Source of the DNA: Patescibacteria group bacterium | GTDB taxonomy: Bacteria > Patescibacteriota > Patescibacteriia > 2-12-FULL-57-11 | Length of the DNA: 58,579 nucleotides | Assembly: GCA_004299275.1 (NCBI GenBank) | Contig: SCSU01000061.1 | Location: 1-58,579, forward strand | Direction of reading: 5' to 3' | Part shown: positions 5,995 through 50,900 of the stretch, piece after piece | Numbering within the stretch: the first letter of the stretch is position 1 | Layout of the letters: each line of letters begins with the position of its first letter | The notes under the pieces: generated by a model | What the model was told of the DNA's origin: nothing | The model's input: only the letters and a program-made list of their open reading frames with translations | The model's database searches: none | Translations under genes and position numbers: made by a program

Positions 5995-8892
5995 CTAAAC
6001 CTTCTCCAGTCCAATCCAAGCTGTCTCGCCTTGGATTTGCACCTCCGTCGTGTACGGCAGATCGGCGCGGCCGGTCGTTACAGTTTTGGCGCGGACGGCT
6101 TGGCCAAGTTCGGTCTCGACTTTTTTAAATTCGGCGGCAGGCTCGCCAGAAGTTTCGTAAGAGAGATGGATGAAGTCGCTCACGGTGAGTCCGGCACTTT
6201 TTCGGAGCGCCTGGATATGGCGAATCAGCTCGCGCAGAGCGCCGGCGCGTTTGAGTTCCGGCGTTAAAGCCGTATCGAGCGTCACGGAGATTTCCCCGCT
6301 CTTTTTTTGTTCAACGGCGAGAACATTCAGTTCATCGCGGATAATCTCGGCAATTTCATCCGTAAAGGGCGCGCCGGTGAGCACGGCTTTCGCGAGCGGC
6401 TGGCGAGTTGGCATTTTGGCCGCCGACCGCTGTTCCAAGCCGAGCGAGACCACCACCCGCGCTCGCGCCATTTCTTCCAAGAGCTTTTTATCCGACATCT
6501 TTTTTTCAAGTTTGGGCCAATTTTCGAGATGCACTGACTCCATGGAACCTTGGAGTTCGCGGTAAAGCGCCTCGGCGGTAAAGGGCGCGAATGGCGCCAG
6601 CAGTTTGGAAAATTGAAGCAGTGCAAAATGGAGCGTGGCGCTGGCTTGTTTCCCCCCCGCGCCCTTGAACCGCTCGCGGCTGCGGCGGACATACCAAGTG
6701 GAAAGGTCAGTCACAAAGTCAGCGAGCGCTCGCGCCGGCTCGGTGACGCGATATGCTTCGAGGTCGGCTGTGACTTTTTCCGCGAGTTCTGAGAGACGCG
6801 CGAGAATCCAGCGGTCGAGAATGTGACGCGAGGGGATAGTGGATAGTGGATAGTGGATAGAACTGTAAGTTTTGTAGAAGGCGAGCACGTTCCAGAGAAT
6901 CAGGAAAAATTTGCGCTGGAGTTCGGCCAAGTCCTTTTCGTCAAAACGTTTGGCGTCGCCGGGCTGGTTGACCGAGTACATATAGAGCCGCAGGCAGTCG
7001 GCGCCGTATTTCTCAATCATCTGCCAGGGGTCAACCACATTACCTTTGGATTTGGACATTTTTTGCCCCTTGGCATCGAGGAGGTGTCCAAGCGAAATCA
7101 CATTTTTGTAGGGCGCGTCTTTGCCGAGGAGCGCGGCAACGGCGAGCAGGGTATAAAACCAGCCGCGGGTTTGGTCAATCGCCTCGCTGATGTAGTCGGC
7201 GGGAAAAGCTTCGCCGCCATCCACCCGTTTTTTGTTTTCAAACGGATAGTGCCACTCCGCAAAAGGCATGGCGCCGGAATCAAACCAGACGTCAGCGACC
7301 TCTTTGACCCGGCTCATCCAGGCGCCGCATTTTTGGCAGTGGATTTTTAGGGCGTCCACAAAAGGCCGATGGAGGTCAACCGCGCCGCTGTTTTTTGGCA
7401 ACTCGCCGGTCAGTTTTTCCAGTTCTTCAAGCGAGCCGACGCAGAGGCGGTGCTCGCATTTCTCGCATTCCCAAATCGGGAGCGGCGTGCCCCAGTAGCG
7501 CTCGCGGGAAAAAGCCCAGTCCTTGACCGAACGGAGCCACTCGCCAAAGCGGCCTTCCTTTATATATTCCGGCACCCAGTTGATTTGAGCATTGGCGCGA
7601 AGCAGTTTTTCCTGCAGCGCGGTCATCCTAATCCACCACGATTCCTTAGCGTAGTAGAGGAGCGGCGTCCCGCAGCGCCAGCAAAAGGGATAGTCGTGCG
7701 TGTAATCGTAGCTCGCATAGAGCGCGCCGTTTTTTTTCAGACTGGCGATGATTGCCGGATCGGCATCCTTGACGAACTCACCGGCCCAAGGCGTGATCTC
7801 AGGGAGAAACCGGCCATCAGGGTCAACAGTCATCAGCACCGGCAGGTTGTTTCCACGGCCGACGTTGAGGTCATCTTCGCCAAAAGCCGGCGCGATATGG
7901 ACAATGCCCGTGCCTTCTTCGACCGAGACAAAGCTTCCGGCAATCAGCCGGTAAGCGGGCCGGTCGGGTTTAACAAAGGTAAAAAGCGGTTCGTAGCTGA
8001 GGCCAGCGAGCTCGCGGCCCATAACCGAGAAAAGGGTTTTTGAATCGGGGGGGAGGACTTTCTCGGCCAGCGCTTCGGCGACAATCAAAGTTTCTTCGCC
8101 GTTTTTTGCCAGCCGGTAGGTGATGTTCGGCCCGACAGCCAGCGCGACATTGGCCGGGAGTGTCCAAGGGGTCGTGGTCCAAACCAGAAAAAAAGTTTGG
8201 TCGTCGGTCACAATTTCTTTCCCTGACCCTGATTTGATTTTTTGCCCGGCCGCGGCGCGCAGTTTAACGATGACCGACGGCTCGGTGACTTCTTTATAAC
8301 CTAGCGCCACCTCGTGGGAGGAGAGCGCGGTGCCGCAACGGGGGCAATAGGGGACAATTTTGTAGTCTTTGTAGAGCAGTCCTTGGTCCCAGACTTGTTT
8401 GATAATCCACCAAAGCGATTCAATGTAAGGCGTCTCGTAGGTGATGTAGGGGTGCTCCAAGTCCAGCCAAAAACCGATGCGCCTGGTTATTTTGTTCCAA
8501 TCTTCAAGATAAGACCAAACGCTTTTTTTGCATTCGGCGTTGAAAAAGGCGATGGACTCGGCTGGGGTCGCTTTGAGCGATTCAATTTGTTTTTTCCCCG
8601 AGATGCCCAGAGCTTTTTCCACGCCGAGCTCGACCGGCAGGCCGTGGGTGTCCCAGCCGGCTTTGCGTTCCACGCGCCAGCCGGCCATGGTCTTGTAGCG
8701 CGGGAAGAGGTCTTTGAAGGCGCGGGCCTCAACGTGGTGGATGCCCGGCCGTCCGTTCGCGGTCGGCGGGCCCTCAAAAAACACAAAATTGCCGCGGGGA
8801 GATTTTTTTTCCAGCGTTTTTCCAAAAATTTTTTTCTCTTCCCAGAAACGAAGGATTTGTTCTTCCAATTCGGGAAAATTAGGGGCGGGCAT
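5995..8892 (-). CDS. ileS: isoleucine--tRNA ligase
   Basis: 965 aa. PTANGRPGIHH (HIGH-like), KMSKSKGN, class Ia editing and anticodon-binding regions. Confidence 0.95.
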   Translation of the reverse strand: MPAPNFPELEEQILRFWEEKKIFGKTLEKKSPRGNFVFFEGPPTANGRPGIHHVEARAFKDLFPRYKTMAGWRVERKAGWDTHGLPVELGVEKALGISGKKQIESLKATPAESIAFFNAECKKSVWSYLEDWNKITRRIGFWLDLEHPYITYETPYIESLWWIIKQVWDQGLLYKDYKIVPYCPRCGTALSSHEVALGYKEVTEPSVIVKLRAAAGQKIKSGSGKEIVTDDQTFFLVWTTTPWTLPANVALAVGPNITYRLAKNGEETLIVAEALAEKVLPPDSKTLFSVMGRELAGLSYEPLFTFVKPDRPAYRLIAGSFVSVEEGTGIVHIAPAFGEDDLNVGRGNNLPVLMTVDPDGRFLPEITPWAGEFVKDADPAIIASLKKNGALYASYDYTHDYPFCWRCGTPLLYYAKESWWIRMTALQEKLLRANAQINWVPEYIKEGRFGEWLRSVKDWAFSRERYWGTPLPIWECEKCEHRLCVGSLEELEKLTGELPKNSGAVDLHRPFVDALKIHCQKCGAWMSRVKEVADVWFDSGAMPFAEWHYPFENKKRVDGGEAFPADYISEAIDQTRGWFYTLLAVAALLGKDAPYKNVISLGHLLDAKGQKMSKSKGNVVDPWQMIEKYGADCLRLYMYSVNQPGDAKRFDEKDLAELQRKFFLILWNVLAFYKTYSSIHYPLSTIPSRHILDRWILARLSELAEKVTADLEAYRVTEPARALADFVTDLSTWYVRRSRERFKGAGGKQASATLHFALLQFSKLLAPFAPFTAEALYRELQGSMESVHLENWPKLEKKMSDKKLLEEMARARVVVSLGLEQRSAAKMPTRQPLAKAVLTGAPFTDEIAEIIRDELNVLAVEQKKSGEISVTLDTALTPELKRAGALRELIRHIQALRKSAGLTVSDFIHLSYETSGEPAAEFKKVETELGQAVRAKTVTTGRADLPYTTEVQIQGETAWIGLEKV
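6834..6860. repeat. heptamer tandem array (GGATAGT)x~4 inside the ileS coding sequence, in frame
   Basis: Direct reading. Encodes IHYPLSTIP just before the conserved ILDRWIL. Confidence 0.9.
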
Positions 8893-8914
8893 ACCCGGCA
8901 GTAGAATTTGTTAG

Positions 8915-8960
8915 CACGGACCTTGAAGGTCCGTTTTCACAGACCTTCAAGGTCCGTGTC
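8915..8960. repeat. GACCTTGAAGGTC double-palindrome module (family C, copy 1 of 3) in the ileS 5' leader
   Basis: CACGGACCTTGAAGGTCCGTTTTCACAGACCTTCAAGGTCCGTGTC. Near-identical copies lie at 13007 and 49134. Confidence 0.85.
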
Positions 8961-8971
8961 CAGCTTGGAAA

Positions 8972-8980
8972 AGTATACCA
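8972..8980 (-). promoter_or_regulatory. extended -10 promoter-like element TGGTATACT upstream of the ileS leader
   Basis: Sequence match only. Confidence 0.3.
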
Positions 8981-9073
8981 GTGAAGCGCTGGTTGGCAAT
9001 GTGCTTCCTGACGGGCCTGATTGTTTGACAGCCGCGTTTTTATCTGTTGAGCTGACGGCGAAGGCAGGAGGAA

Positions 9074-9499
9074 ATGGAGGATTATCAGCTGGAAAAACAG
9101 ATGGCGGTGGCGATTTACTCGTTTCTCTTCGCCGAGGCTCAAGCGCGCCTGCGCCGTCTTCAGGAAATCGTGAACGATTGGGGGATGAATCAACCGCCGC
9201 TCGAAAAAAATGGCGTGGAGCGCGTGCCGGCCGCGAGTCGGGTCCCGCGCGAGATCTGGGTCGAAATTAAACTCCTCGAACAGGAGTGGCAGGAGCTTGC
9301 GGCGGCAGCTCGGGCATTGACCGAACAGGACAGCCGTGAGTACTACCGGGTCGCCGACGCGCTGGCCAAACTCCGGGCGAGTTTGGAGGTATCAGACACG
9401 CTGGTTTGGGCAATTCGTTCAGCTATCGCCAATCGCGGCGTAATCGCCTCGCGTCTCGCCTTTTGGGAGAGAGAACTGCGCCGAGCACAGACGCCCTGA
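9074..9499 (+). CDS. hypothetical protein, 141 aa
   Basis: AGGAGG lies 3 nt upstream of the ATG. The ORF is co-directional with downstream rpiB. No family recognised. Confidence 0.55.
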   Translation: MEDYQLEKQMAVAIYSFLFAEAQARLRRLQEIVNDWGMNQPPLEKNGVERVPAASRVPREIWVEIKLLEQEWQELAAAARALTEQDSREYYRVADALAKLRASLEVSDTLVWAIRSAIANRGVIASRLAFWERELRRAQTP

Positions 9500-11700: not shown

Positions 11701-12980
11701 CAAGACCCGATCTCCATTGCGCATTAGATAAAAATAAAGTGTTACCGTAGTCGTGTTGGTATTTTGAAAAGTTTTTTAAGAATCGAGTCGCATTTTTGTT
11801 TGAGTACAATCGGGTTCAGTGTAGCATATTTCTGACGCAATCTTTCTTTTGTTTCAGGGTCAATATCCGGATGAGCCAGTACCCGCTGATATACTGTCTG
11901 CGCCGTATCGTACTTGCGCACTTTTCTGGAAAGAATCCGTACTTTCTCAATGCACTTCAAAGACGGAATGAAAAAGTTAATGTAATCTTCCAAAACATCA
12001 TAAAGTTCGTTTAAAATTGCGGCGTGTCGCAGATCGTTAAATCTAGTGTAACCCACGATATGTCTCACATTGGCGTAGTTCTTCTGTTCGATCCTCGCAT
12101 GGTCGTTTTTCATGTAAGGACGGGTGCGGGTCATCTTAATTTTCCGTTCATCGCACCACCCCTTAAGATGCCAATTGATGAATTCTCCTCCGGAATCCGG
12201 ATCAATGCCGCGTAACGGAAAGGGTAAACGTCTTTCAATTCGCTCAATACTGCGCACGGTTTCCATTTCTCCTTTGTTCCACTGCGCCGCCAGCATCGTC
12301 CAGATAGTTGCGACGTCCGTATACTGCACTGTATAGCAAAAATCGCCTGAAATCGTGTATCCGCAATGAGCCACAGTGTCCACCTCGCCCCACCCCGGAG
12401 GAGGATTCTCCCAAGGACCTCTTCGTACCGGAATGATTTCTTTAAGATTGGATGGTTTGGTTGCGCCTCGTCCGCCGCGACGTCTGATGTTCTCAAAATT
12501 AGCAATGCGGTTCTTAATGGTGCCGAGACTCGCCTGAAGCAAGAGACCGGTCGTTTCCTCAGCGTGCTTCCACATCCCGTCTCTCTTCAAAATTCTGATA
12601 TATTCTGGAATTGCCGGGTGCAGACGTTCGGCGCAGATGCGATTGGCGGCTGCCCATATCTCCTTAAGAGCCGCCGCAGTTCGGTGGTCATAGACCTTCT
12701 TCCTCCCGCGGCGTTCTTCGTAGGAGCTAGGGCGAAGATGAAACGTTCGGAACCTCCGGATGGCCGATTTTCGGAATACCTTCGTGATACTACAGACCGC
12801 GTCAAGGATTCGACCCTTTCCTGCTTTATCTGCGGTTAGATACTCCCGCAGTTTTTCCTTAAAAATCTCCTGTTTGGTAGCCATATTCATATACGGCTAC
12901 GGTAACAGGAATTATTATCTAACCGCTCCTGTCTCGGTAACAGTTATTTTTATCTAAAGCGCATTGGAGATCGGGTCTTG
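11701..12980 (-). mobile_element. insertion sequence, ~1,280 bp, ~48-bp imperfect terminal inverted repeats
   Basis: Left end: CAAGACCCGATCTCCATTGCGCATTAGATAAAAATAAAGTGTTACCGTAG. Reverse complement of right end: CAAGACCCGATCTCCAATGCGCTTTAGATAAAAATAACTGTTACCGAG. Single transposase ORF and lower GC. Confidence 0.85.
11742..12890 (-). CDS. DDE (rve/integrase-core type) transposase
   Basis: 382 aa. Candidate catalytic triad in GEVDTVAH ... GIDPDSGGEF ... HARIEQKN. IS family not assigned. Confidence 0.8.
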   Translation of the reverse strand: MNMATKQEIFKEKLREYLTADKAGKGRILDAVCSITKVFRKSAIRRFRTFHLRPSSYEERRGRKKVYDHRTAAALKEIWAAANRICAERLHPAIPEYIRILKRDGMWKHAEETTGLLLQASLGTIKNRIANFENIRRRGGRGATKPSNLKEIIPVRRGPWENPPPGWGEVDTVAHCGYTISGDFCYTVQYTDVATIWTMLAAQWNKGEMETVRSIERIERRLPFPLRGIDPDSGGEFINWHLKGWCDERKIKMTRTRPYMKNDHARIEQKNYANVRHIVGYTRFNDLRHAAILNELYDVLEDYINFFIPSLKCIEKVRILSRKVRKYDTAQTVYQRVLAHPDIDPETKERLRQKYATLNPIVLKQKCDSILKKLFKIPTRLR

Positions 12981-12987
12981 TTATTTG

Positions 12988-13006: not shown

Positions 13007-13050
13007 ACAGACCTTGAAGGTCTGTAAAAACGGACCTTCAAGGTCTGTGC
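13007..13050. repeat. GACCTTGAAGGTC double-palindrome module (family C, copy 2 of 3) in the tkt 5' leader
   Basis: ACAGACCTTGAAGGTCTGTAAAAACGGACCTTCAAGGTCTGTGC. Confidence 0.85.
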
Positions 13051-13967: not shown

Positions 13968-15119
13968 ATGCCATTTGGAATAAATCCTAAGGCAAAATTG
14001 GTCAAAAATTTATTCGCCGCGGACATTGAACTCAAACCGACCCGCGATGGCTATGGTTTGGGTTTGGTGGATGCCGGCAAAAAGGACGCCAAGGTGGTCG
14101 TGCTTTGCGCCGACCTTTCCGAATCCACCCGCTCGCATTGGTTTAAAAAAGAATTCCCCGCTCGCTTTGTGCAGATTGGCGTCTCCGAACAGTCCATGGC
14201 CGCGATTGCCTCGGGCTTAGCGCTGGCCGGCAAGGTGCCGTTTATCTCAAGCTACGCCGGTTTTTCCCCGGGCCGGAATTGGGAACAGATTCGGACGACG
14301 ATTACCTTGAACGACGCCAACGTCAAAGTCGCCGGCGCGCACGCCGGGGTCTCGGTCGGTCCGGATGGCGCCACGCACCAGATGACCGAAGACCTCGCGC
14401 TGATGCGTACTCTGCCGAACATGGTAGTTCTCGCGCCGTGCGATATGCAGGAAACCAAAAAGGCCACGGTCGCGGTGGCGGGTGTTTACGGTCCGCACTA
14501 TCTCCGTTTCGGCCGCGAGAAATCGCCGGTGTTCACCACGCCGGCCACACCTTTTAAAATAGGGCGAGCAGAAATTTTCCGTTTCGGCCGCGATGTGACG
14601 ATTGTCGCCTGCGGTATTTTGGTTCACGAGGCGCTCAAGGCGGCGGAGGAACTCCGCAAAAAAGGCATTGAGGCCGAGGTGATTGATTCTCACACGATTA
14701 AGCCGCTGGACGCCAAAACAATTCTCGCTTCAATTGCGAAAACCGGCTGCGTGGTGACAGTGGAAGAGCATCAGGTTGACGGCGGGTTGGGAGCGGCAGT
14801 CGCTGAAGCGCTTGGGGCGGCTCGGCCGGTGCCTTTAGAGCGGATTGGTGTGCAGAATCGTTACGGCGAGTCAGGTGAGCCGATAATGCTCCTCGAGGCC
14901 TTCGGTTTAACTTCGCCTTATATCGCAATGGCCGCGCGACGGGCGACTGCGCGAAAAGCAGGGAAAAAAGTGTCGGAAGTCCCGGATTATATGGCGGCGG
15001 CAGAGCGACGTGCCGTTGAACTAAAAAAACAAGTGATTAGCGAAGCGCTCTCCCGCGCGCCGCGGGAGTGGGGAGGAAAAAAGGGAAACATTAAAGACCT
15101 AATTAAAAAAAGTAAGTAG
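13968..15119 (+). CDS. transketolase, C-terminal (Pyr/C-domain) subunit with ~60-aa basic C-terminal extension
   Basis: FVQIGVSEQSMAAIASGLA...GPDGATHQMTEDLALMRTLPNM. The tail ..KKGNIKDLIKKSK extends beyond the usual length. Confidence 0.85.
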   Translation: MPFGINPKAKLVKNLFAADIELKPTRDGYGLGLVDAGKKDAKVVVLCADLSESTRSHWFKKEFPARFVQIGVSEQSMAAIASGLALAGKVPFISSYAGFSPGRNWEQIRTTITLNDANVKVAGAHAGVSVGPDGATHQMTEDLALMRTLPNMVVLAPCDMQETKKATVAVAGVYGPHYLRFGREKSPVFTTPATPFKIGRAEIFRFGRDVTIVACGILVHEALKAAEELRKKGIEAEVIDSHTIKPLDAKTILASIAKTGCVVTVEEHQVDGGLGAAVAEALGAARPVPLERIGVQNRYGESGEPIMLLEAFGLTSPYIAMAARRATARKAGKKVSEVPDYMAAAERRAVELKKQVISEALSRAPREWGGKKGNIKDLIKKSK

Positions 15120-15136
15120 AACATAGAAGGTAGGCC
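15116..15136. repeat. heptamer array, GTAGAAC family (GTAGAAC ATAGAAG GTAGGCC)
   Basis: Direct reading. Overlaps the tkt-C stop codon. Confidence 0.7.
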
Positions 15137-15151
15137 AAAAATAAGTGTGCT

Positions 15152-16138
15152 ATGTCCAAACCCGTCTTTGACATGATTTCGGTCGGCGATGCCACGCTGG
15201 ACATCTTTATTTTTGTCTCCGAGGCCTCGGTGATGTGCTCGGTGGACCGCACGGCCTGTCTTTTGTGTTTTAACTACGCGGACAAAATTCCCATTGAGCG
15301 GCTGGACCGCTCTGTCGCCGGCAACGCCGCCAACAATGCCGTTGGCAGCGCCCGCTTGGGGCTCAATACTTCTTTCTACTCCATCATCGGCGACGACGAG
15401 ACCGGCCACTCGGTCACCGAGACGATGAAAAAGGAAAAAGTTTCACTGGAGCATCTGCGTTTGGACAAAAAGCATCCTTCCAATTATTCCGTGGTGCTCA
15501 ATTACCGCGGCGAGCGGACGATTCTGACCCACTCGGAGCCGCGCACCTACGAGGCGCCGCACTTGGTGCATTCGGAGTGGGTTTACTACACGGCCATCGG
15601 CAAGAATCACGAGCGGCTGGAGCGCGATATTGTGAAGCACGTCAAACGCACTGACACCAAGCTCGCCTATAACCCGGGCTCGAGCCAGCTCCGGGAAGGG
15701 TTGAAACGCCTCCTGCCGACTTTTGCCGCCACCAATGTTTTATTTTTGAATAAAGAAGAAGCCCAGCTCTTAGTGGGCAAACAGGGGACGATGTCGGCGC
15801 TTTTGCGCGCGCTCCAGGAGCAGGGGCCAGAGATGGTGGTCGTGACCGACGGGCCGCGCGGTTCAAGCGTCTTTGACGGCCGGAAGATGTATTCCATGGG
15901 GGTGTTTCCGGTCAAGGTGGTGGAGATGACCGGCGCCGGCGACGCTTTTGCCACGGCTTTTATCGCCGCGCTCCACTACGGCCGGCCGGTAACCGAGGCG
16001 CTCCGCTGGGGCGCGGCCAACGCCGCTTCGGTCGTGACTAAAATCGGGCCGCAAGCCGGGCTCCTGCGTTTGCCGGAGCTCAAGCGCTGGCTTAAGAGAT
16101 ATGCTTCGGTGAAACCAAGGGAGTTGAAGACCGGCTAA
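15152..16138 (+). CDS. PfkB-family carbohydrate kinase
   Basis: 328 aa. TGAGDAFATAFIAAL signature near the C-terminus. Substrate not assignable. Confidence 0.8.
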   Translation: MSKPVFDMISVGDATLDIFIFVSEASVMCSVDRTACLLCFNYADKIPIERLDRSVAGNAANNAVGSARLGLNTSFYSIIGDDETGHSVTETMKKEKVSLEHLRLDKKHPSNYSVVLNYRGERTILTHSEPRTYEAPHLVHSEWVYYTAIGKNHERLERDIVKHVKRTDTKLAYNPGSSQLREGLKRLLPTFAATNVLFLNKEEAQLLVGKQGTMSALLRALQEQGPEMVVVTDGPRGSSVFDGRKMYSMGVFPVKVVEMTGAGDAFATAFIAALHYGRPVTEALRWGAANAASVVTKIGPQAGLLRLPELKRWLKRYASVKPRELKTG

Positions 16139-16168
16139 GCGCTTATCGCCTAGCGCTTATCGTTTATG
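16134..16168. repeat. heptamer array, GCTTATC orientation (left arm of four-helix-bundle cassette 1)
   Basis: GCTAAGC GCTTATC GCCTAGC GCTTATC GTTTATG. Spans the kinase stop and the cassette ATG. Confidence 0.85.
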
Positions 16169-16513
16169 TTTAGATTTGAGGGCCTGGAGATCTGGCAACT
16201 AGCAATCAAGTATGCTGAAAAGTTATACTCCGTCTCGCGGGCATTTCCAGATGAGGAACGTTACGCACTTGCTGATCAGCTCCGTCGCGCGGCAATCTCT
16301 ATTTCCAACAATATAGCCGAAGGTTCGGGTGGAACAGATAGAGAATTTCGTAACTTCCTTTCGATGAGTGTCAAGTCAACATTGGAGTGCATTAACATCT
16401 TAATTATTGCAGAACGTCTACGTTATATTTCGAGAGCAACGAAGGATTCTCTCTACGAGGAAGGAGAACGACTTATTCGTAAGATACGAAGTTTTCGCAA
16501 CACTTTTCCATAG
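16166..16513 (+). CDS. four-helix-bundle protein (23S rRNA intervening-sequence protein / Avd-like family)
   Basis: LEIWQLAIKYAEKLYSVSRAFPDEERYALADQLRRAAISISNNIAEG...EFRNFLSMSVKSTLE is the family signature. Confidence 0.85.
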   Translation: MFRFEGLEIWQLAIKYAEKLYSVSRAFPDEERYALADQLRRAAISISNNIAEGSGGTDREFRNFLSMSVKSTLECINILIIAERLRYISRATKDSLYEEGERLIRKIRSFRNTFP

Positions 16514-16527
16514 TAATCCCACGGTCG

Positions 16528-16564
16528 GCGATTAGCGATAAGCTATAAGCGATTAGCGATAAGC
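16528..16564. repeat. heptamer array, GATAAGC orientation (right arm of cassette 1), ends at the fba ATG
   Basis: GCGATTA GCGATAA GCTATAA GCGATTA GCGATAA GC-ATG. Reverse complement of the left-arm units. Confidence 0.85.
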
Positions 16565-17488
16565 ATGCTGGTCACACTAAAATCCGTACTCTCCAAAGCC
16601 CACCGCGGCAATTACGCCGTCGGCGCGTTTAACATTAACAATTTGGAAATTTGTCAGGCGGTGATGGCGGCGGCGGAGAGAGTCCGCGCGCCGGTGATTC
16701 TCCAGACTTCCGAAGGCGCGATTGACTACGCCGGGATGGATTACCTCGCGGCCATCGCGCGGCTCGCGGCGGCGAAGACGCGCCTGCCGGTGGTTTTTCA
16801 CCTCGACCACGGCAAAAATCCGGCGCTGGTTGAACGGGCGATTAAAAGCGGGTATTACACCTCAGTGATGATTGACGGGTCGGCTCGTTCTTATAAAGAA
16901 AACGTCCGCATCACAAAAAAGATTGTCGCGATGGCTCATCGCCGCGGTATTTCGGTTGAGGCCGAGCTCGGCGCTATCGCCGGGATTGAGGATTTTGTTT
17001 CTGTTTCCGAGCGCGAAGCGCGGCTCACCAATCCCGTGGAAGCCGCAAAATTTGTTAGAGAAACCGGGTGCGATGCTTTAGCCGTGGCCATTGGCACGAG
17101 CCACGGCGCGTTCAAGTTTAAGGGCGAACCAAAACTTGATATTGTGCGGCTGAAAAAAATAAAGAAGCTCACCAAAAAACCGCTCGTGCTCCACGGCGCC
17201 TCCGGCGTGCCGGCGGACATCAAACGGCTCGCCCTAAAATACGGCGGCCGTCTCAAGGAAGCCCGCGGCGTCTCCGACGCGCTCAACCGCACCGCGGTCC
17301 GCGGTGGCATCAATAAAGTGAACATTGATACTGACCTGCGTCTGGCTTTTACCGCCGGCGTGCGTCGGGCGCTCGCGGAACACCCCGAGGTGATTGACCC
17401 GCGCAAAATTCTTGGCCCGGCAAAAAACTTCATCACGCAAGTCGTCGCGCGCAAAATGCGCCTCCTCGGCTCTGCGGGCAAGGCGTAA
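16565..17488 (+). CDS. fba: class II fructose-bisphosphate aldolase
   Basis: 307 aa. VVFHLDHG, GTSHGAFKF and LVLHGASGV motifs. Confidence 0.9.
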   Translation: MLVTLKSVLSKAHRGNYAVGAFNINNLEICQAVMAAAERVRAPVILQTSEGAIDYAGMDYLAAIARLAAAKTRLPVVFHLDHGKNPALVERAIKSGYYTSVMIDGSARSYKENVRITKKIVAMAHRRGISVEAELGAIAGIEDFVSVSEREARLTNPVEAAKFVRETGCDALAVAIGTSHGAFKFKGEPKLDIVRLKKIKKLTKKPLVLHGASGVPADIKRLALKYGGRLKEARGVSDALNRTAVRGGINKVNIDTDLRLAFTAGVRRALAEHPEVIDPRKILGPAKNFITQVVARKMRLLGSAGKA

Positions 17489-17651: not shown

Positions 17652-17681
17652 CCCGCTCCGCAAGGAGCGGGCTTTGTTTTT
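17652..17681 (+). terminator. rho-independent terminator after fba
   Basis: CCCGCTCC-GCAA-GGAGCGGG followed by a T-rich run. Confidence 0.75.
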
Positions 17682-17711: not shown

Positions 17712-18704
17712 ATGGCTGGTTTTGACCTCATCACTATCGGCGCGGCGACGATTGACGCTTTTGTCTGGTCCAAGGCCTTCCGTCTGGTTAAAAGCCGCGC
17801 TTTTTCCACTGGCGTGGGCGAGTGCTTGTCGCTCGGTTCAAAAATCGAGATTGATAAGTTCGTGCTAGGGACCGGCGGCGGCGGAACCAACTCGGCCGCG
17901 ACTTTTGCCAATCTCGGTTTTAAAACCGCCTGTTTGACCGCTGTCGGCGATGACCTTTTTGGCCAAGGCGTGCTCGGAGATTTAAAAACGCGCCGGGTGG
18001 CTTCGGTTCTGGTTCAGAGAATCCCCGGCGGACAAACCGCCTTTTCCACAATTTTAGTCGTGCCTTCGGGCGAGCGGACCATACTGGTCTCGCGCGGCGT
18101 GGCCGAGCATCTGTCGGAAAAAATGCTTCCGCGGCGGTTCAGCGCCAAGTGGATTTACATGACCTCGCTCGGCGGCAATTTGAAATTTGGGAGGAAAATT
18201 TTCAGCCAGGCAAAAAAATCCGGGACGAGCATTTTCTGGAACCCGGGCGCCAAAGACCTTGTGCTTGGAGCCGGTCGTCTGAAGCCTTTCTTAAAACAAG
18301 TGGAAGTTTTGGACATGAACCGCGAGGAGGCGATGAAGTTGACCGGTCGGCCTCTTGGAGATTTAGCAGGCATGCTCCGTGACTTAGATAAAATCGGCAG
18401 CCGCTTAGTGCTCCTGACCGACGGGGAGAAGGGCGCCTATCTCTCAGAAGGCGGGCAGTTGTGGCGGGCGCACACCCATCGCCATATCAAAGTGGTTAAT
18501 AAGACCGGCGCGGGTGATGCTTTTGGCAGTGGTTTTCTCGCCGGGCTCATCAAATATCGTGACCGGACGCGGGCGCTCCAGCTCGGGGTCTTGAACTCCG
18601 AGAGCGTCATCCAAAAAATCGGCGCCAAAACCGGACTCCTCACTAATTGGCCAAGCAAAAATAAACTGGCCGGCGTAAAAGTGACCGCCGTCGCTAAAAG
18701 CTAA
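17712..18704 (+). CDS. PfkB-family carbohydrate kinase (second copy)
   Basis: MAGFDLITIGAATIDAFV...NKTGAGDAFGSGFLAGL. Start chosen at ATG 17712; the track start 17694 is also possible. Confidence 0.75.
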   Translation: MAGFDLITIGAATIDAFVWSKAFRLVKSRAFSTGVGECLSLGSKIEIDKFVLGTGGGGTNSAATFANLGFKTACLTAVGDDLFGQGVLGDLKTRRVASVLVQRIPGGQTAFSTILVVPSGERTILVSRGVAEHLSEKMLPRRFSAKWIYMTSLGGNLKFGRKIFSQAKKSGTSIFWNPGAKDLVLGAGRLKPFLKQVEVLDMNREEAMKLTGRPLGDLAGMLRDLDKIGSRLVLLTDGEKGAYLSEGGQLWRAHTHRHIKVVNKTGAGDAFGSGFLAGLIKYRDRTRALQLGVLNSESVIQKIGAKTGLLTNWPSKNKLAGVKVTAVAKS

Positions 18705-18754
18705 TCGCTTAGCGCGTATCGCCGGCGATATGCGATTGGCGATAAGCGATATGC
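18700..18754. repeat. back-to-back inverted heptamer arrays of the GATAAGC family with no cargo
   Basis: GCTAATC GCTTAGC GCGTATC GCC|GGC GATATGC GATTGGC GATAAGC GATATGC. Palindromic about GCCGGC. Confidence 0.8.
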
Positions 18755-19755: not shown

Positions 19756-19783
19756 GTAGTACATAGAACGTAGAACATAGAAA
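19756..19783. repeat. heptamer array, GTAGAAC orientation (left arm of cassette 2)
   Basis: GTAGTAC ATAGAAC GTAGAAC ATAGAAA. Ends 3 nt before the cassette ATG. Confidence 0.85.
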
Positions 19784-19786
19784 TGT

Positions 19787-20191
19787 ATGCGGGTGAGTTC
19801 ATATAAGGATTTGATTGTTTGGCAGAAGGCAATGCAGCTTGTGAAAAAAGTGTATTCTCTAACACAGCTGCTACCCCGGGAGGAGCTGTATGGCCTCGCG
19901 AGTCAAATGAAGCGCGCCGCGGTTTCTGTCCCGTGCAATATCGCAGAGGGATTCAGGCGAAACCACCGGCAAGAGCAAATCCAGTTCTTTGCGGTCTCGT
20001 ATGGCTCGGGTGCTGAACTGGAAACTCAGATTGAGATTTGCAAGCAGCTCGGTTTTGCAAAAGCGGAACAGACCAAGGTCGCAGAGGATATTCTCAATGA
20101 GGTGATGAGGATGCTTAACACATTTTCCATTCCCATGAGCCGACGCCTCCAAGATTCAACTACCAACTACGTTCTACGTTCTACGTTCTGA
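19787..20191 (+). CDS. four-helix-bundle protein (23S rRNA intervening-sequence protein / Avd-like family)
   Basis: LIVWQKAMQLVKKVYSLTQLLPREELYGLASQMKRAAVSVPCNIAEG. The C-terminal TTNYVLRSTF is encoded by the right-arm heptamers. Confidence 0.85.
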   Translation: MRVSSYKDLIVWQKAMQLVKKVYSLTQLLPREELYGLASQMKRAAVSVPCNIAEGFRRNHRQEQIQFFAVSYGSGAELETQIEICKQLGFAKAEQTKVAEDILNEVMRMLNTFSIPMSRRLQDSTTNYVLRSTF

Positions 20192-24017: not shown

Positions 24018-26804
24018 ATGACTAAGAAAATTGAACTCCCCAAGTCCTACGCCCCCAAGGACTACGAAGACGCGCTTTACCGCCAATGGGAAAAGAGCGG
24101 GTTTTTTAATCCGGACAAATTGCCCGGCCGGCGTCCGGATTCTTACTGTATTGTGATGCCGCCGCCGAACGTCACCGGCGTTTTGCACATCGGCCACGCG
24201 GTGATGCTCGCGATTGAAGACCTGCTGATTCGTTTTGAGCGCCTGCGCGGGAAAAAAACGCTCTGGCTCCCGGGCACCGACCACGCCGCGATTGCCACCC
24301 AGAACAAGGTGGAAAAGCTCCTTTGGGAGAAGGAAAAGAAAACCCGCCACGCTCTCGGCCGCGAAAAATTTTTGGCGCGGGTTAAAAACTTCGCGCAGGA
24401 GTCGCACGACACGATTGTCACTCAAGTCAAAAAGATGGGCTCCTCCTGCGACTGGTCGCGCGAGGCCTACACTTTGGACGCGCCGCGCGTTCAGGCCGTG
24501 GCCGAGGCCTTCCGGCGATTGCATGAAATGGGACTGATTTACCGCGGCCAGCGGGTTGTTAACTGGTGCCCGCACTGTCAGTCAACGCTCTCTGACGACG
24601 AGGTAGCGTACCGGCCGGCCAAGGAGAAGCTCTATTGGATTAAATACGGACCCTTTGTTTTGGCCACCGCCCGTCCCGAAACCAAACTAGGGGACACCGC
24701 CGTGGCCGTGCACCCCCAAGACCAGCGCTACAAAAAATACGTGGGCCGGCGTTTCAAGATTCCCGGCGTGCTCGGCGAATTTGAAGTCGTGGTCGTGGCT
24801 GACGGGGTAGTGGACAGGGAGTTCGGTTCGGGGATGATTAAGGTTACCCCGGCCCATGATTTTACCGACTTTGAGATCGCGGCGCGCCACGGCGTTCCAA
24901 TGCGTCAAGTAATTGGCGAAGACGGCCGGATGATGGCGAATACCGGCAAATATGCCGGGCTCACCACCGCCGAGGCGCGCGCGGCGATTGTCCGCGACAT
25001 GGAGAAAATGGGTTTGATTGAAAAGATTGAAGAATACGAGCATAACCTCTCGGTCTGCTATCGTTGCGGCACGACGATTGAGCCGTTGCCTAAACTCCAG
25101 TGGTTTATCGCGGTCAATAAACCTTTTACCTTTCGCCAGTCAGCGCGGTCTCCGATTAAAGACATCGGCGACGGCGAAAAAATCACGCTCAAAGAGCTGA
25201 TGAGTCACGTGGTCAAAACTGGCCAGATTCAAATCATCCCCGACCGTTTTGTCAAAACCTATTTCCACTGGATTGACAATCTCCGCGACTGGAACATCTC
25301 GCGTCAGATTTGGTTCGGCCACCGGATCCCAGTTTGGCACCACGATACCTGTCAGATGCTTGGCATCATGGACACAATGCACCAGCCTGACACATGGATG
25401 CGGGATGCTTATGTTATTTTGGATAAACCATTGGATGAGTATGCCGACGACGAGATCGTTTATTGTGGGAAGTGCAAGAACGGTTACACCATCAAAAAGA
25501 TAAAGGAGGGTCATTTTACACAGGATCCGGACACGCTGGACACCTGGTTTTCTTCCGGGCTCTGGACTTTTTCCACGCTCGGCTGGCCGGCGGAGATGGC
25601 GGATTTTAAAAATTATCATCCGACCGCGGTGCTCGAGACTGGTTATGACATTCTTTTCTTTTGGGTGGCGCGGATGATTTTGATGTCGCTCGCGCTGATC
25701 GGCGAGATTCCTTTCAAAACAGTTTATTTGCACGGACTGGTGCGCGACGAGCAGGGGAGGAAGATGAGCAAGTCACTCGGGAACGTGATTGACCCGCTCG
25801 CGGTCGCCGCCAAGTACGGGACTGACGCCGTGCGGCTCTCGCTCGTGCTCGGCACGACGCCCGGGAACGACACCCGGCTCTCGGAAGAAAAAATCGCCGG
25901 CTTCCGCAATTTTACCAACAAGCTGTGGAATATCGGACGGTTCGTGTTGAGCCAAACCTCAATTTCCAAATTCCAAATTCCAAATTCCAAAACTTTGCCC
26001 GACCGCTGGATTCTTTCCCGCTTGTCCGAGGTGACCGAGCGGGTGACGCGGCATCTGGAAAATTATGAATTTTCCGCGGCCGGCGAAATTCTGCGCGATT
26101 TTACCTGGGGCGATTTTGCCGATTGGTACTTGGAAATCAGCAAAGTTCAAAAACAGAGTTCACCCGCGCTCGCCAAAAACACCGATTTAATTCTCCGTCA
26201 CACCCTCGCGGTTCTCCTTAAGCTCTGGCATCCCTTTATGCCTTATGTGACCGAGGTTCTGTGGCGAGAACTTCAAGGAAAAGAGGGCGGTTTGCTTTTG
26301 GTCGCGTCCTGGCCGGCGCCGGGGGCACGGGAGGCGCGAGCCGAGCAAGCGATGAAGAACTGGCAGGAGACGGTCGCCGCGATCCGCAATCTCCGCGCCG
26401 AATACAAGGTGCCGCCGGAGCGGGAAGTTGAGGCCGAAATCGTCAGCGCGCCGGCTGGATTGTCCGAGGAGCTCGCTTGGCTCGAAAAATTGTCTCGGAG
26501 CAAAATCAGCGCTGTTAAAAAAGCTGAGAAAAAAGGCCAGGCGGCCGCGCTCGCCGGCTCCATGGAAATTTATGTTGACCTCGCCGGAGCGGTTGACCGA
26601 GGGCGGGAGTCCGCCCGGCTTCAAAAAGAGCGGGAGAGTTTAGAGAGTTATCTCGCCGCCTTGGAGGCCAAACTAAAAAATAATGACTTTTTGAAACGAG
26701 CGCCGTCGGCGGTGGTGGAAAAGGAAAAAGAAAAAGCCGCGGCGGCGCGCGACAAACTGGCGCGAATCCGCCGCGAGCTCACATCGCTTGGTGCGGACGG
26801 TTGA
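24018..26804 (+). CDS. valS: valine--tRNA ligase
   Basis: 928 aa. PPPNVTGVLHIGHA, KMSKSLGN, and a C-terminal coiled coil. Confidence 0.95.
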   Translation: MTKKIELPKSYAPKDYEDALYRQWEKSGFFNPDKLPGRRPDSYCIVMPPPNVTGVLHIGHAVMLAIEDLLIRFERLRGKKTLWLPGTDHAAIATQNKVEKLLWEKEKKTRHALGREKFLARVKNFAQESHDTIVTQVKKMGSSCDWSREAYTLDAPRVQAVAEAFRRLHEMGLIYRGQRVVNWCPHCQSTLSDDEVAYRPAKEKLYWIKYGPFVLATARPETKLGDTAVAVHPQDQRYKKYVGRRFKIPGVLGEFEVVVVADGVVDREFGSGMIKVTPAHDFTDFEIAARHGVPMRQVIGEDGRMMANTGKYAGLTTAEARAAIVRDMEKMGLIEKIEEYEHNLSVCYRCGTTIEPLPKLQWFIAVNKPFTFRQSARSPIKDIGDGEKITLKELMSHVVKTGQIQIIPDRFVKTYFHWIDNLRDWNISRQIWFGHRIPVWHHDTCQMLGIMDTMHQPDTWMRDAYVILDKPLDEYADDEIVYCGKCKNGYTIKKIKEGHFTQDPDTLDTWFSSGLWTFSTLGWPAEMADFKNYHPTAVLETGYDILFFWVARMILMSLALIGEIPFKTVYLHGLVRDEQGRKMSKSLGNVIDPLAVAAKYGTDAVRLSLVLGTTPGNDTRLSEEKIAGFRNFTNKLWNIGRFVLSQTSISKFQIPNSKTLPDRWILSRLSEVTERVTRHLENYEFSAAGEILRDFTWGDFADWYLEISKVQKQSSPALAKNTDLILRHTLAVLLKLWHPFMPYVTEVLWRELQGKEGGLLLVASWPAPGAREARAEQAMKNWQETVAAIRNLRAEYKVPPEREVEAEIVSAPAGLSEELAWLEKLSRSKISAVKKAEKKGQAAALAGSMEIYVDLAGAVDRGRESARLQKERESLESYLAALEAKLKNNDFLKRAPSAVVEKEKEKAAAARDKLARIRRELTSLGADG
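25964..25991. repeat. heptamer tandem array (TTCCAAA)x4 inside the valS coding sequence, in frame
   Basis: Direct reading. Encodes ISKFQIPNSK just before the conserved LPDRWIL. Confidence 0.9.
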
Positions 26805-44169: not shown

Positions 44170-44179
44170 AAAAGAGTAC

Positions 44180-44207
44180 GTAGAACGTAGAACATAGAAC
44201 TAAACAC
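44180..44207. repeat. heptamer array, GTAGAAC family
   Basis: GTAGAAC GTAGAAC ATAGAAC TAAACAC, starting 11 nt after the groEL stop. Confidence 0.8.
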
Positions 44208-46179: not shown

Positions 46180-47100
46180 ATGAGAATTCTAGTGACCGGT
46201 GGTGCAGGTTTCATCGGTTCCCACGTGGTGGATGCGCTCGTCTCTCGCGGACACAAAGTAACCGTGCTCGATGACCTCTCCACTGGCAAGCGGGAGAACT
46301 TGAACCGCCAAGCGGCCTTCGTCAAAGGCAAGGTTGAGACCCTCGCGGCCGAACGGCTGGTGCGCCGGCTCCGTCCCGAGGCGATTTTTAACTTCGCCGC
46401 GCAAAAGGATGTCCGTTTTTCTGTCAGCCGTCCGGCTGAAGACGCGCTCATTAACGTCGTCGGTCTGCTCCGCTTGGTCCAAGGCGCGCTGCCTCATGGC
46501 CTCAAACGGTTGGTGCTGGCTTCGACCGGCGGCGCGATTTACGGCGGCGCAAAAAAATTGCCGACGCCGGAAGATTATCCCGCTCATCCGTTTTCGCCCT
46601 ACGGCGTCTCTAAACTTGCGAGCGAGCTTTATCTCCACTCTTACCGGCACGCCGGCGGCTTGCCCGCGGTCTCGCTCCGTTTCGCCAATGTCTACGGCCC
46701 GCGCCAAGACCCGAAGAGCGAGGCCGGCGTGGTCGCCATTTTTGCCCGCCGACTGCTCCGCGGCCAGCGGCCGGTGATTACGGGCGACGGGGAGCAGTCC
46801 CGGGACTTTGTCTACATTGACGATGTCGTGCGGGCTTGCCTCGCCGCTTTGACGACGAAACATCTCGGCGTTTACAACATCGGCACCGGGGTGGAAACAA
46901 ACATCAATGAACTGGCGCGGATGCTGAATTTACTTGTTGGCAGCGAGCTCCAGCCGGTTTACGCTCCGGCAGTAGCGGGGGAAGAGCGCCGAAGCGCTCT
47001 AGCGATTGGACTGGCTAAGAAATTTCTTGGCTGGAAGCCGCGAGTGGCGCTGGCTCAGGGACTGGCCAAGACGATTGAGTGGCAGATAGCGCGTAGCTAA
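46180..47100 (+). CDS. NAD-dependent epimerase/dehydratase (UDP-glucose 4-epimerase-like)
   Basis: ILVTGGAGFIGSH and YGVSK catalytic motifs. 306 aa. Confidence 0.85.
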   Translation: MRILVTGGAGFIGSHVVDALVSRGHKVTVLDDLSTGKRENLNRQAAFVKGKVETLAAERLVRRLRPEAIFNFAAQKDVRFSVSRPAEDALINVVGLLRLVQGALPHGLKRLVLASTGGAIYGGAKKLPTPEDYPAHPFSPYGVSKLASELYLHSYRHAGGLPAVSLRFANVYGPRQDPKSEAGVVAIFARRLLRGQRPVITGDGEQSRDFVYIDDVVRACLAALTTKHLGVYNIGTGVETNINELARMLNLLVGSELQPVYAPAVAGEERRSALAIGLAKKFLGWKPRVALAQGLAKTIEWQIARS

Positions 47101-47130
47101 TCGCATATCGCAAATAGCAGATAGTGAATG
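47082..47130. repeat. heptamer array with GC at unit positions 1-2 (GCAGATA GCGCGTA GCTAATC GCATATC GCAAATA GCAGATA GTGAATG)
   Basis: Direct reading. Spans the epimerase stop codon. Confidence 0.75.
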
Positions 47131-47134
47131 TTAA

Positions 47135-47178
47135 ATTCTCCTTTTCTAAAGGGAGTACCCGAAGGGGGAGGGATTTAT
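47135..47178 (+). repeat. REP-like double hairpin, family A (copy 4, diverged)
   Basis: ATTCTCCTTTTCTAAAGGGAGTACCCGAAGGGGGAGGGATTTATG. Confidence 0.8.
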
Positions 47179-47183
47179 GAATA

Positions 47184-47242
47184 ATAGCGAATAGCGAATA
47201 GCGAATGAAAGCGAATTCAAAGCAAATAACAGCGAATAGCAG
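47184..47242. repeat. heptamer array (ATAGCGA)x3 plus degenerate units, ends at the tsaC ATG
   Basis: ATAGCGA ATAGCGA ATAGCGA ATGAAAG CGAATTC AAAGCAA ATAACAG CGAATAG CAG-ATG. Confidence 0.8.
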
Positions 47243-49100: not shown

Positions 49101-49182
49101 ATGCCCGGTAGTGAAACGCCGACGGCAAGCCGGACACAGACCTTGAAGGTCTGTAAAAACGGACCTTCAAGGTCTGTGTGTA
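49101..49182 (+). promoter_or_regulatory. rsmA leader: uORF head (ATGCCCGGTAGTGAAACGCCGAC) fused to the family C module
   Basis: The first 9 codons, MPGSETPTA, match the nrdJ/valS uORF heads. There is no 3' arm. The frame is open into rsmA. Confidence 0.6.
49134..49180. repeat. GACCTTGAAGGTC double-palindrome module (family C, copy 3 of 3)
   Basis: ACACAGACCTTGAAGGTCTGTAAAAACGGACCTTCAAGGTCTGTGTG. Confidence 0.85.
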
Positions 49183-49988
49183 TGGATTTAACCGACCGTA
49201 CAGAATTGCGCGCGCTTCTTGCCCGCCACGGCATCACGCTGGCCAAAACCTACGGCCAGCATTTTTTGGTTGACCGCCGCGTGCTGGAGATGATTGTGGA
49301 AACAGCCTTCCCTATTCCCTATACCCTATTCCCTATACCCCTAGTTTTCGAGGTCGGCCCCGGCGCCGGCACGCTCACGCGTGAACTTGCGGCGCGCGCC
49401 GGGCGCGTCATCGCCGTTGAGCGCGACCCGCGTTTTTTGCCCGTGCTCGAGGAGACGCTCAGCGAGTTTGGCAATGTTCAAATCATCGAAGCCGACGCCT
49501 TAAAAATCTCCTTCAGTCAACTCACCCCTCCCTATACCCTAGACCCTAGACCCTATACCCTTGTCTCCAACCTCCCTTACGAAATCACCACGCCTTTTCT
49601 CTGGAAAATTTTGGAAGAGGAGCCGGTTGTGCCGGCGCAAGCCGTCCTCTTAATCCAAGCCGATGTCGCCGAGCGAATTCTGGCCAAGCCGCCCAAGATG
49701 AATCTGCTCGCGCTTTTGGTCCAGCTCTCGGGCGAGGTGAAACTTGTCCGCAAGGTTCCGGCTTCGGCATTTTTTCCGCCGCCGCGGGTCCAGAGCGCGA
49801 TTATTGAAATCATCCCCAGATTGGATATCCGCCAAGCGCCAAGCGCTAAGCGCCAAGCTCTTTCCTTGGCCCGCCGCGCTTTTGCCAACCCCCGCAAAAA
49901 ATTAGGCAATACTTTGGGCAATCAGGCCGGGCGTTTTGCCGCTCGCCGGCCCGGGGAGCTCGGGGTGGAGGACTGGCTGGAGTTGTGA
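49183..49988 (+). CDS. rsmA: 16S rRNA (adenine1518/1519-N6)-dimethyltransferase RsmA/KsgA with three in-frame heptamer insertions
   Basis: MDLTDRTELRALLARHGITLAKTYGQHFLVD...EVGPGAGTLT...SNLPYEITTP. Start set at ATG 49183; the track ORF (49050) reads through the leader repeats. Confidence 0.85.
49311..49338. repeat. heptamer array CCTATTC CCTATAC CCTATTC CCTATAC inside rsmA
   Basis: Direct reading. Encodes FPIPYTLFPIP just before the EVGPGAGTLT SAM motif. Confidence 0.9.
49530..49560. repeat. heptamer array CCCTATA CCCTAGA CCCTAGA CCCTATA inside rsmA
   Basis: Direct reading. Encodes PPYTLDPRPYT just before SNLPY. Confidence 0.9.
49831..49858. repeat. heptamer array GCCAAGC GCCAAGC GCTAAGC GCCAAGC inside rsmA
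   Basis: Direct reading. Encodes RQAPSAKRQAL. Confidence 0.9.
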
Positions 49989-50745: not shown

Positions 50746-50787
50746 GTGAGTAGTGAGTAGAACGTAGAACATAGAACGTAGTATTTA
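50746..50787. repeat. heptamer array GTGAGTA GTGAGTA GAACGTA GAACATA GAACGTA GTATTTA
   Basis: Direct reading. Starts 5 nt after the stop codon. Confidence 0.8.
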
Positions 50788-50790
50788 TTC

Positions 50791-50895: not shown

Positions 50896-50900
50896 ATCTG

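Follow-up and report, generated by a model that had tools for sequence, protein, structure and literature searches.

The spacer between pfkB and fba in the 58,579-nt contig SCSU01000061.1 (the whole of which we call the window) is entirely occupied by an insert of ~430 bp, cassette 1, which consists of a gene for a four-helix-bundle (FHB) protein bracketed by inverted arrays of 7-nt units. The host belongs to Candidatus Uhrbacteria, within the candidate phyla radiation (CPR), and the gene, FHB1, belongs to the protein family encoded by the open reading frames (ORFs) carried by 23S rRNA intervening sequences (IVS). We propose that cassette 1 is an IVS-type, promoterless FHB gene, inherited together with its inverted heptamer arms, that is carried in the host transcript, looped out by a long stem of its paired arms that is probably cut by RNase III; we put the probability of this reading at roughly 0.55. 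The role of the FHB protein is most probably tied to the heptamer arrays, which is compatible with the IVS-type explanation. The elements at this junction are the following.

15152-16138, + strand: pfkB, the upstream host gene (carbohydrate kinase; from the sequence and PF00294, E 1.9e-41)
16134-16162, + strand: left arm of cassette 1, GCTAAGC GCTTATC GCCTAGC GCTTATC G (family A, complement of GCGATWA)
16166-16513, + strand: FHB1, four-helix-bundle gene of 115 aa (profile match to PF05635/TIGR02436)
16528-16564, + strand: right arm of cassette 1, GCGATTA GCGATAA GCTATAA GCGATTA GCGATAA GC (from the sequence)
16565-17488, + strand: fba, the downstream host gene (class II fructose-bisphosphate aldolase; PF01116, E 3e-98)
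17652-17671, + strand: predicted terminator-like hairpin after fba

An earlier note on this DNA had described the 115-aa gene as bracketed by inverted heptamer arrays and the cassette as filling the spacer exactly, and the sequence bears out both statements. The TAA stop codon of pfkB (16136-16138) falls within the first heptamer of the left arm, and the fba ATG starts at 16565, the base right after the end of the right arm (16564). The left arm has four heptamer units and the right arm five, the latter reported by Tandem Repeats Finder as 5.3 copies at period 7. The arms are complementary at 83% of positions over 29 nt, or 76% over 34 nt, and they are predicted to form a stem, as the note had claimed; with five mismatches in 29 the pairing is imperfect, so that its length of about 30 bp is an upper figure. 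The long-range terminal stem was kept in both the minimum-free-energy and the centroid structures predicted for the RNA. The best inverted match between the flanks of FHB1 scored 14, compared with 7.0 ± 1.1 in shuffled sequences (n = 300; maximum 11; 0/300 reached 14). Among the 66 other genes in the window the median score was 7, and only one, in an element resembling an insertion sequence (IS), was above that of cassette 1. The window holds seven strict tandem arrays at period 7 and none at any other period from 4 to 12.

The assignment of the 115-aa gene to the 23S rRNA IVS protein family, made in the earlier note from the letters, was confirmed by profile searches: FHB1 matched Pfam PF05635 with E 2e-29 and 102 bits (cutoff 33.8) and TIGR02436 with 98 bits (cutoff 24). 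A profile built from 26 relatives matched PDB 2GSC, the structure of XCC0516 (E 1.8e-26). This entry was deposited with five chains, and the family member has been described as a homopentamer (PMC4990558). Comparison of FHB1 with its orthologue in a close relative (locus L163) gave a pN of 0.13 and a pS of 0.81, which indicates that the protein is under purifying selection. The G+C content of FHB1 is 43% (40% at third codon positions, GC3), while its neighbouring genes have 58% (GC3 67-76%). We considered this low G+C as proof of recent transfer and rejected it, because the FHB gene is AT-richer than its host neighbours in all lineages checked (the window, L163, L165, L170, L172 and L177), old vertically inherited copies included; in Xanthomonas, for example, its GC3 is 65% against 82-85% in the neighbours. 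Low G+C is therefore a trait of the gene family and not a sign of recent transfer.

A tblastn search of the window with the FHB1 protein found a second FHB gene, FHB2, whose product is 31% identical to FHB1 and matched TIGR02436 with 114 bits. It lies in cassette 2, between a 2-hydroxyacid dehydrogenase gene (DH) and a small gene, hyp159, and its heptamer unit is unlike that of cassette 1. A hairpin built of cassette 1-type units lies at the other end of DH, at its junction with pfkB2.

19756-19782, + strand: left arm of cassette 2, GTAGTAC ATAGAAC GTAGAAC ATAGAA (family B), beginning 3 nt past the DH stop codon
19787-20191, + strand: FHB2, ORF of 134 aa with the domain at about residues 4-113 (tblastn; TIGR02436; precomputed Pfam for locus L001)
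20160-20189, + strand: right arm of cassette 2, CTACCAA CTACGTT CTACGTT CTACGTT CT, ending 6 nt ahead of the ATG of the next gene (20196)
18693-18754, no strand: ORF-less family A hairpin at the pfkB2/DH junction, GCTAATC GCTTAGC GCGTATC GCC followed by GGC GATATGC GATTGGC GATAAGC GATATGC (fold -30 kcal/mol)

The tail of the FHB2 ORF reads through the right arm of its cassette. The arms of cassette 2 are 87% complementary over 23 nt; their terminal stem, too, appears in the predicted minimum-free-energy and centroid structures, and the fold has a z of -2.8. The earlier note had named other FHB genes without inverted flanks as a finding that would speak against its idea; the second copy in the window does have inverted heptamer flanks.

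As that note had also pointed out, the fold is that of Avd, the accessory protein of diversity-generating retroelements (DGRs), and the two do share a homologous four-helix-bundle fold family (PMC10053308). FHB2 moreover matched an Avd model weakly (E 7e-7). We therefore weighed the reading that the gene is the Avd of a DGR and the arms are part of that DGR, and rejected it as the least probable of all that we considered. FHB2 reached 29.5 bits against the cutoff of 80 for the Avd-specific equivalog model NF033474, and FHB1 did not match it. The context is a metabolic operon, unlike that of Avd: the neighbours are pfkB, fba, the 2-hydroxyacid dehydrogenase and a small gene of no known function. 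There is no template/variable repeat pair, and a scan confined to the neighbours and to 20 of the larger ORFs in the window detected no reverse transcriptase. A reading as an anti-phage defence system was likewise rejected, as neither FHB1 nor FHB2 matched any PADLOC defence-protein model.

Related genomes keep the gene order TktC-pfkB-fba-pfkB2-DH-hyp159, and the syntenic junctions, which the earlier note had proposed to compare, include empty sites. In eight related Uhrbacteria (L004-L010 and L022) pfkB and fba are separated by a cassette-free gap of ~3-10 nt. The DH/hyp159 gap is ~5-7 nt and cassette-free in L004 and L007, and the pfkB2/DH junction is either short or an overlap in every relative except one, with heptamer arrays in none of them. 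These short empty junctions indicate that the two cassettes, and likewise the ORF-less hairpin, were inserted and that the arrays arrived with them. The close relative L163 carries cassette 1 at the same site (TktC 81% and FHB protein 78% identical), and judging from these sequences cassette 1 is an old, vertically inherited insertion. The mobile cassette suggested in the earlier note finds support in part: the empty sites attest to insertion, but besides being shared with L163, the cassette has a Xanthomonas counterpart fixed between accB and accC in five genera, and no transposase or target duplication was seen. In another close relative (L003; 3885-3975) and in L011 (3925-3995) the pfkB/fba junction holds a palindromic element of ~70-90 nt that is unrelated to the cassette (GTCATTGCGAGCGAAGCGAAGCAATC...), which marks this junction as a hotspot for various small palindromic inserts.

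We then surveyed the flanks of related genes. A search with an alignment of 26 homologues yielded 80 metagenomic loci with identities of 34-60%, and the 70 of these with at least 120 nt on each side of the gene made up the census set. The best inverted flank match had a median of 12 compared with 7 for a direct-orientation control, and the inverted score was at least 12 in 38/70 loci against 10/70 for that control. Control ORFs had a median inverted score of 7, and none reached 12. Autocorrelation in the flanks was 0.39 and 0.37 at lag 7, with a second peak at lag 14, over a background of ~0.28. The density of strict period-7 arrays was 0.79 per kb up to 200 nt from the gene, 0.063 per kb on the rest of the same contigs and 0.005 per kb over control loci totalling 590 kb. 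The median array had 4.3 units. The heptamer itself varies by locus (GGGCATA, GCAAAGC, GTTAGCT, AGGGATA, TCAGCCG and others), many units having the form GCNNNNN, and the upstream arm is purine-rich (0.69) and the downstream arm pyrimidine-rich (0.35). At all annotated loci examined the gene is in sense orientation relative to its neighbours, except at a Calothrix plasmid locus (L169).

In most prokaryotic genomes with a wealth of 5-11-nt repeats, heptamers are reported to be the commonest of the long simple repeats (Mrazek 2007, cited in PMC4679880), and the window has many arrays, some of them inside coding genes. The arrays might accordingly be ordinary microsatellites generated by slippage, with a coincidental position and complementarity. 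We regard this as highly improbable: the ~150-fold enrichment beside PF05635 genes relative to control loci, together with inverted complementarity far above both the direct-orientation control and the shuffles, excludes coincidental microsatellites for practical purposes. The pattern also spans CPR bacteria, Cyanobacteria, and Alpha- and Gammaproteobacteria, and the arms are identical among strains: across four Buchananbacteria contigs, and across three contigs each with proteins of the X. campestris and X. sacchari types. A related reading, that the arrays are phase-variable microsatellites (contingency loci), was rejected on account of this identity among strains.

Several census loci adjoin tRNA genes or rpmG. 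One Buchananbacteria contig (L166) has two FHB genes (8022-8372 and 8729-9085) on either side of rpmG (L33), near tRNA genes. The first of them has a purine-rich array upstream and a tRNA gene directly past its stop codon, so that its right arm, if any, would lie beyond the tRNA.

Among named organisms, orthologues of the crystallised XCC0516 were found in Xanthomonas, Stenotrophomonas, Lysobacter, Dokdonella and Dyella (L177, L180, L183-L186), in all five genera at the accB/accC junction. Their left-hand arrays consist of GGGAAT[CG] units and their right-hand ones are of the CATTCCC type; the right arm runs up to the accC ATG, and the start of the XCC0516-type ORF falls inside the left array. 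The predicted terminal stems are strong, appearing in minimum-free-energy and centroid structures, with a z of -8.2 in Xanthomonas and -3.9 in Dokdonella. In Cyanobacteria, the FHB gene and heptamer arms were found on plasmids of Nostoc, Calothrix, Picosynechococcus and Leptolyngbya, with arms such as GGGAACA/TGTTCCC in Nostoc edaphicum, AGTCAGG in N. punctiforme and GGAGATA/TATCTCC in Picosynechococcus. The Picosynechococcus cassette (L172) is wedged between cmr2 and cmr3, and one on a Pseudanabaena plasmid (L171), with arrays of 14 and 10 units, is wedged between cas6 and cas4. A protein listed as '23S rRNA IVP' is statistically CRISPR-associated (PMC10910872). Such wedged cassettes may explain this association without a functional role, and their presence in two cyanobacterial plasmids calls for caution in reading it functionally.

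A locus on an Azospirillum lipoferum plasmid (L174) is a genuine 23S rRNA IVS (Rfam LSU, 508 bits) with a PF05635 ORF. Its arms are inverted and heptamer-periodic (CAGAGGA CGGATGA... and CCGTCCT CTGTCTT...). In Coxiella burnetii, three to four GACAGAT heptamers precede the start codon of the IVS gene S23p, and the IVS ends in a 28-bp terminal stem that RNase III cuts in vitro at the first repeat, with ends mapped by rapid amplification of cDNA ends (PMC4990558). These two cases bear out the earlier note's proposal that the ORF-in-a-stem architecture of the 23S rRNA IVS recurs here in an mRNA operon. The cassette shares with the IVS of Coxiella, Leptospira and Azospirillum the protein family (PF05635, 'S23p'), an ORF in sense orientation within the host transcript and a long terminal inverted-repeat stem (predicted in our case), and with those of Coxiella and Azospirillum the heptamer-periodic arms and the heptamers before the start codon. 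It differs in site, since rRNA IVS occupy helix 25 or 45 whereas cassette 1 occupies the spacer of a protein-coding operon; in its excision by RNase III, which is proven for the rRNA IVS and would have to be supposed here; and in the state of its gene, since S23p of Coxiella was judged by its authors to be probably untranslated and decaying (PMC4990558) whereas FHB1 is under purifying selection. By analogy, the insert would work like an IVS. It is not one in the strict sense, because it lies between pfkB and fba and Rfam detected no rRNA; at the gathering threshold, the only Rfam matches in the window were four tRNAs, with no other known RNA family.

The layout of the cassettes is constant. 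The cassette fills the spacer, its left arm begins at or just past the upstream stop codon and its right arm reaches the downstream ATG or stops a few bases short of it. No sigma-70-like promoter was found inside cassette 1 (a weak test for a CPR organism), and the hairpin at 17652-17671 is the probable end of a pfkB-FHB1-fba transcript. This constant geometry, the sense orientation, the lack of an internal promoter-like site and the terminator-like hairpin after fba lead us to read the cassette as a promoterless passenger of the host transcript. It would be transcribed within the pfkB-fba message, where the arms would pair into an imperfect duplex of ~30 bp, looping the cassette out and bringing the pfkB and fba cistrons back together, much as the stem of an IVS preserves helix 45 of 23S rRNA. 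As in the rRNA IVS, this duplex would probably be cut by RNase III, which would free the FHB RNA and split the polycistronic transcript. We infer the pairing in vivo, the cleavage by RNase III and any effect on expression of pfkB, fba or FHB from these features.

Several observations weigh against the IVS-type explanation. The fold of the whole 451-nt cassette 1 is not unusual in energy, with a z of only -1.4, and about half of the 70 census loci fall under the inverted-repeat threshold. The arrays of the Pseudanabaena plasmid are in direct and not inverted orientation, and family B arrays of the window also occur alone, at four solo sites without an inverted partner. Mismatches within the arms were G:U in 65 cases and A:C in 77; because there is no excess of G:U, the pairing does not look tuned for sense RNA, although the wobble test by itself neither supports nor excludes an RNA stem. 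In the Lysobacterales, the arm sequence itself, the non-coding right arm included, is conserved over five genera beyond what complementarity asks for, and the Xanthomonas arms have a periodic C-C mismatch. These last two features point to sequence-specific recognition, and so do the missing G:U excess and the solo arrays, which pairing by itself would not account for.

The absence of a wobble bias is what repeats acting at the DNA level would give. The arms could then be the terminal inverted repeats of a mobile DNA element, moved by an enzyme in trans or by hairpin or cruciform processing, with the FHB gene as cargo or accessory and the ORF-less hairpins as derivatives akin to MITEs (miniature inverted-repeat transposable elements). 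Presence and absence at orthologous junctions (eight empty at pfkB/fba and two at DH/hyp159) agree with this, as do ORF-less hairpins of the same unit that are themselves insertions relative to related genomes, and the many unrelated contexts (cas operons, tRNA clusters, downstream of rpmG, accBC and rRNA). Like MITE and repetitive extragenic palindromic hairpins, the window cassettes are small intergenic inserts, and an ORF-less hairpin of the same unit exists (18693-18754). Unlike them, their arms are heptamer arrays that vary by locus, a conserved protein gene is aboard and no recent multiplication of identical copies was seen. We consider a DNA-level element unlikely. The arm sequences differ so widely between loci that there is no conserved end for a transposase to bind, there is no transposase in the cassette or nearby, and no target-site duplication was recognised (the relatives being too diverged for base-level boundaries). 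Inheritance has been stable, both in the window and L163 and at one site in five Lysobacterales genera, and near-identical copies in differing contexts were not found. Finally, insertion is always exactly from stop to start and almost always in sense, which selection at the RNA level fits better.

The two heptamer families of the window each recur away from their cassettes. Family A (GCGATWA) forms the arms of FHB1 and family B (TAGAACR) those of FHB2; in addition to the ORF-less hairpin at 18693-18754, we found the following sites.

47096-47202, no strand: third family A inverted pair, 47096-47118 (-) and 47187-47202 (+), with a spacer of ~70 nt and no ORF, upstream of a Sua5/YrdC-like gene
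15110-15128, + strand: solo family B array in the TktC/pfkB spacer, directly past the TktC stop codon
40850-40875, + strand: solo family B array in an intergenic spacer, ending 6 nt ahead of the next ATG
44174-44199, + strand: solo family B array directly past the groEL stop codon, containing the exact 19-mer TAGAACGTAGAACATAGAA
50758-50783, + strand: solo family B array containing the exact 19-mer TAGAACGTAGAACATAGAA, with GTGAGTA x2 just before it

All solo family B arrays lie on the same strand, each directly behind a stop codon: those of TktC, a 311-aa gene, groEL and one more gene. The exact 19-mer TAGAACGTAGAACATAGAA occurs at three places in the window, the third being the left arm of cassette 2. 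Beyond the inverted arrays around FHB1, this association of heptamer arrays with the family, genome-wide and at gene-free sites as well, was not part of the earlier note.

That each heptamer family recurs elsewhere suggests that the protein and the repeats are functional partners. The arrays may primarily be sequence-specific RNA or DNA binding sites, with the pentameric FHB protein as the candidate ligand and the inverted layout secondary. Each paralogue would have its own heptamer family, regulating its own gene and a regulon at other stop/start junctions through intercistronic translation or RNA stability. The main function would then lie in recognition of the repeats by the protein and not in processing by RNase III. 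We hold this only tentatively, as a possibility that is compatible with the IVS-type explanation. bAvd, a homologue of the FHB proteins, binds nucleic acid. The recurrence of family A as a hairpin and an inverted pair, and of family B at four solo sites, fits binding sites, as does the conservation of Lysobacterales arm sequence, and arms that are stable among strains do not behave as contingency loci. The XCC0516 arms are of the GGGAATC type published earlier; X. campestris has 186 sites of these repeats, 70 convergent pairs among them, and the study that described them knew of no function. Its supplement has an entry for the array at XCC0517/XCC0516 and does not remark on the protein family (PMC4692102). 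This GGGAATC match in Xanthomonas, together with the pattern of one heptamer family per paralogue in the window, marks out the encoded protein as the obvious candidate for the partner.

Other points tell against binding sites. Matching families are also expected from co-inheritance of a gene with its arms, and the Buchananbacteria contigs have arrays solely at the gene itself. The 186 Xanthomonas arrays (PMC4692102) contrast with a single kind of FHB gene retrieved there, the accB-accC copy. We also considered a match between the pentamer and arrays of five units, which proved not supportive: the typical array has about four units (median ~4.3), not the pentamer's five.

Dispersed heptamer repeats have been described before, as GGGAATC arrays in Xanthomonas, GGGGAYT arrays in Nostoc (PMC4692102), heptanucleotide repeats in Calothrix (as cited in PMC4679880) and TAACTGA arrays in Beggiatoaceae, Cyanobacteria and Bacteroidetes. 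The last lie just upstream of start codons and have no known binding protein (PMC4679880). The window arrays resemble the GGGAATC, GGGGAYT and TAACTGA repeats in that they are arrays of 3-6 units, mostly intergenic, which abut stop or start codons and often form convergent inverted pairs; they comprise at least three tandem 7-nt units, lie mostly between genes and have unit families that recur. This position right after stops and right before starts, shared with the TAACTGA arrays, also suits a binding site. The published repeats were treated as stand-alone elements (G-quadruplex formers or possible translational signals) and not tied to PF05635, whereas the window and metagenomic arrays bracket a PF05635 gene. 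In the open-access literature we found none that connects PF05635 genes as a group with heptamer arrays in their flanks, the nearest being the Coxiella IVS description. The pfkB-fba case would thus be an IVS-type cassette in an mRNA operon, and the general link between PF05635 and heptamers appears to be undescribed.

Two solo arrays outside the window resemble these families. A planctomycete contig (L042, 3968-3990; Planctomycetota) has GATAACT x3, of the TAACTGA family, 10 nt upstream of fba. A Magasanikiibacteriota contig, from another CPR phylum (L024, 1611-1654), has AACATAG x6, a unit identical to family B of the window.

These comparisons raise the possibility, a speculative one, that PF05635 FHB proteins are the missing partners of dispersed heptamer repeats, including GGGAATC in Xanthomonas, the heptanucleotides of Nostoc and Calothrix, TAACTGA-type arrays and the ORF-less rRNA IVS. 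In its full and equally doubtful form, each paralogue would specify its own heptamer family, a gene with inverted arrays would be the complete unit, and solo arrays and ORF-less hairpins would be binding sites or derivatives. If true, this would amount to a layer of intercistronic RNA control that spans phyla and had so far gone unrecognised, or to an unrecognised class of element. The cassette joins three loose ends, namely the function of FHB/S23p genes, the origin of ORF-bearing rRNA IVS and the meaning of bacterial heptamer repeats, as gene and repeats form one conserved unit in rRNA, tRNA clusters, cas operons and core metabolic operons, from CPR bacteria to Xanthomonas. The question is testable in culturable Xanthomonas, with the XCC0516 crystal structure (PDB 2GSC), the accB-accC site and 186 cognate GGGAATC arrays.

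Heptamer arrays also occur in frame within three essential genes of the window, those for IleRS, ValRS and, with three arrays, KsgA/RsmA (6830-6862, 25959-25993, 49307-49340, 49529-49562 and 49829-49858), where they sit at variable loops. In KsgA these variable surface loops are about as long as in B. subtilis KsgA, as if the sequence had been overwritten and not extended.

Three further elements were noted in the window. The IS-like element (11701-12981) has a minus-strand ORF of 381 aa (11742-12890) with a weak IS481-type match and inverted repeats of ~46 nt (CAAGACCCGATCTCCA...TTAGATAAAAATAA...). Its inverted-flank score of 31 makes it the sole high-scoring gene in the window outside the cassettes, and its ends are unrelated to the cassette arms. 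A palindromic element of ~120 nt (TCGTCATCTCGACC...GGGATGACA) at 50746-50915 is flanked by inverted GTGAGTA/CTCACGA heptamers; the junction elements of L003 and L011 are of the same general type. Lastly, the window has three copies of a double palindrome, CAGACCTTGAAGGTCTG-N6-CGGACCTTCAAGGTCTG (8917-8956, 13008-13047 and 49137-49176), where none is expected by chance. Each copy is just upstream of the start of a plus-strand gene (that for the N-terminal half of transketolase, that for KsgA and one other), and it is possibly an operator or a promoter-associated site.

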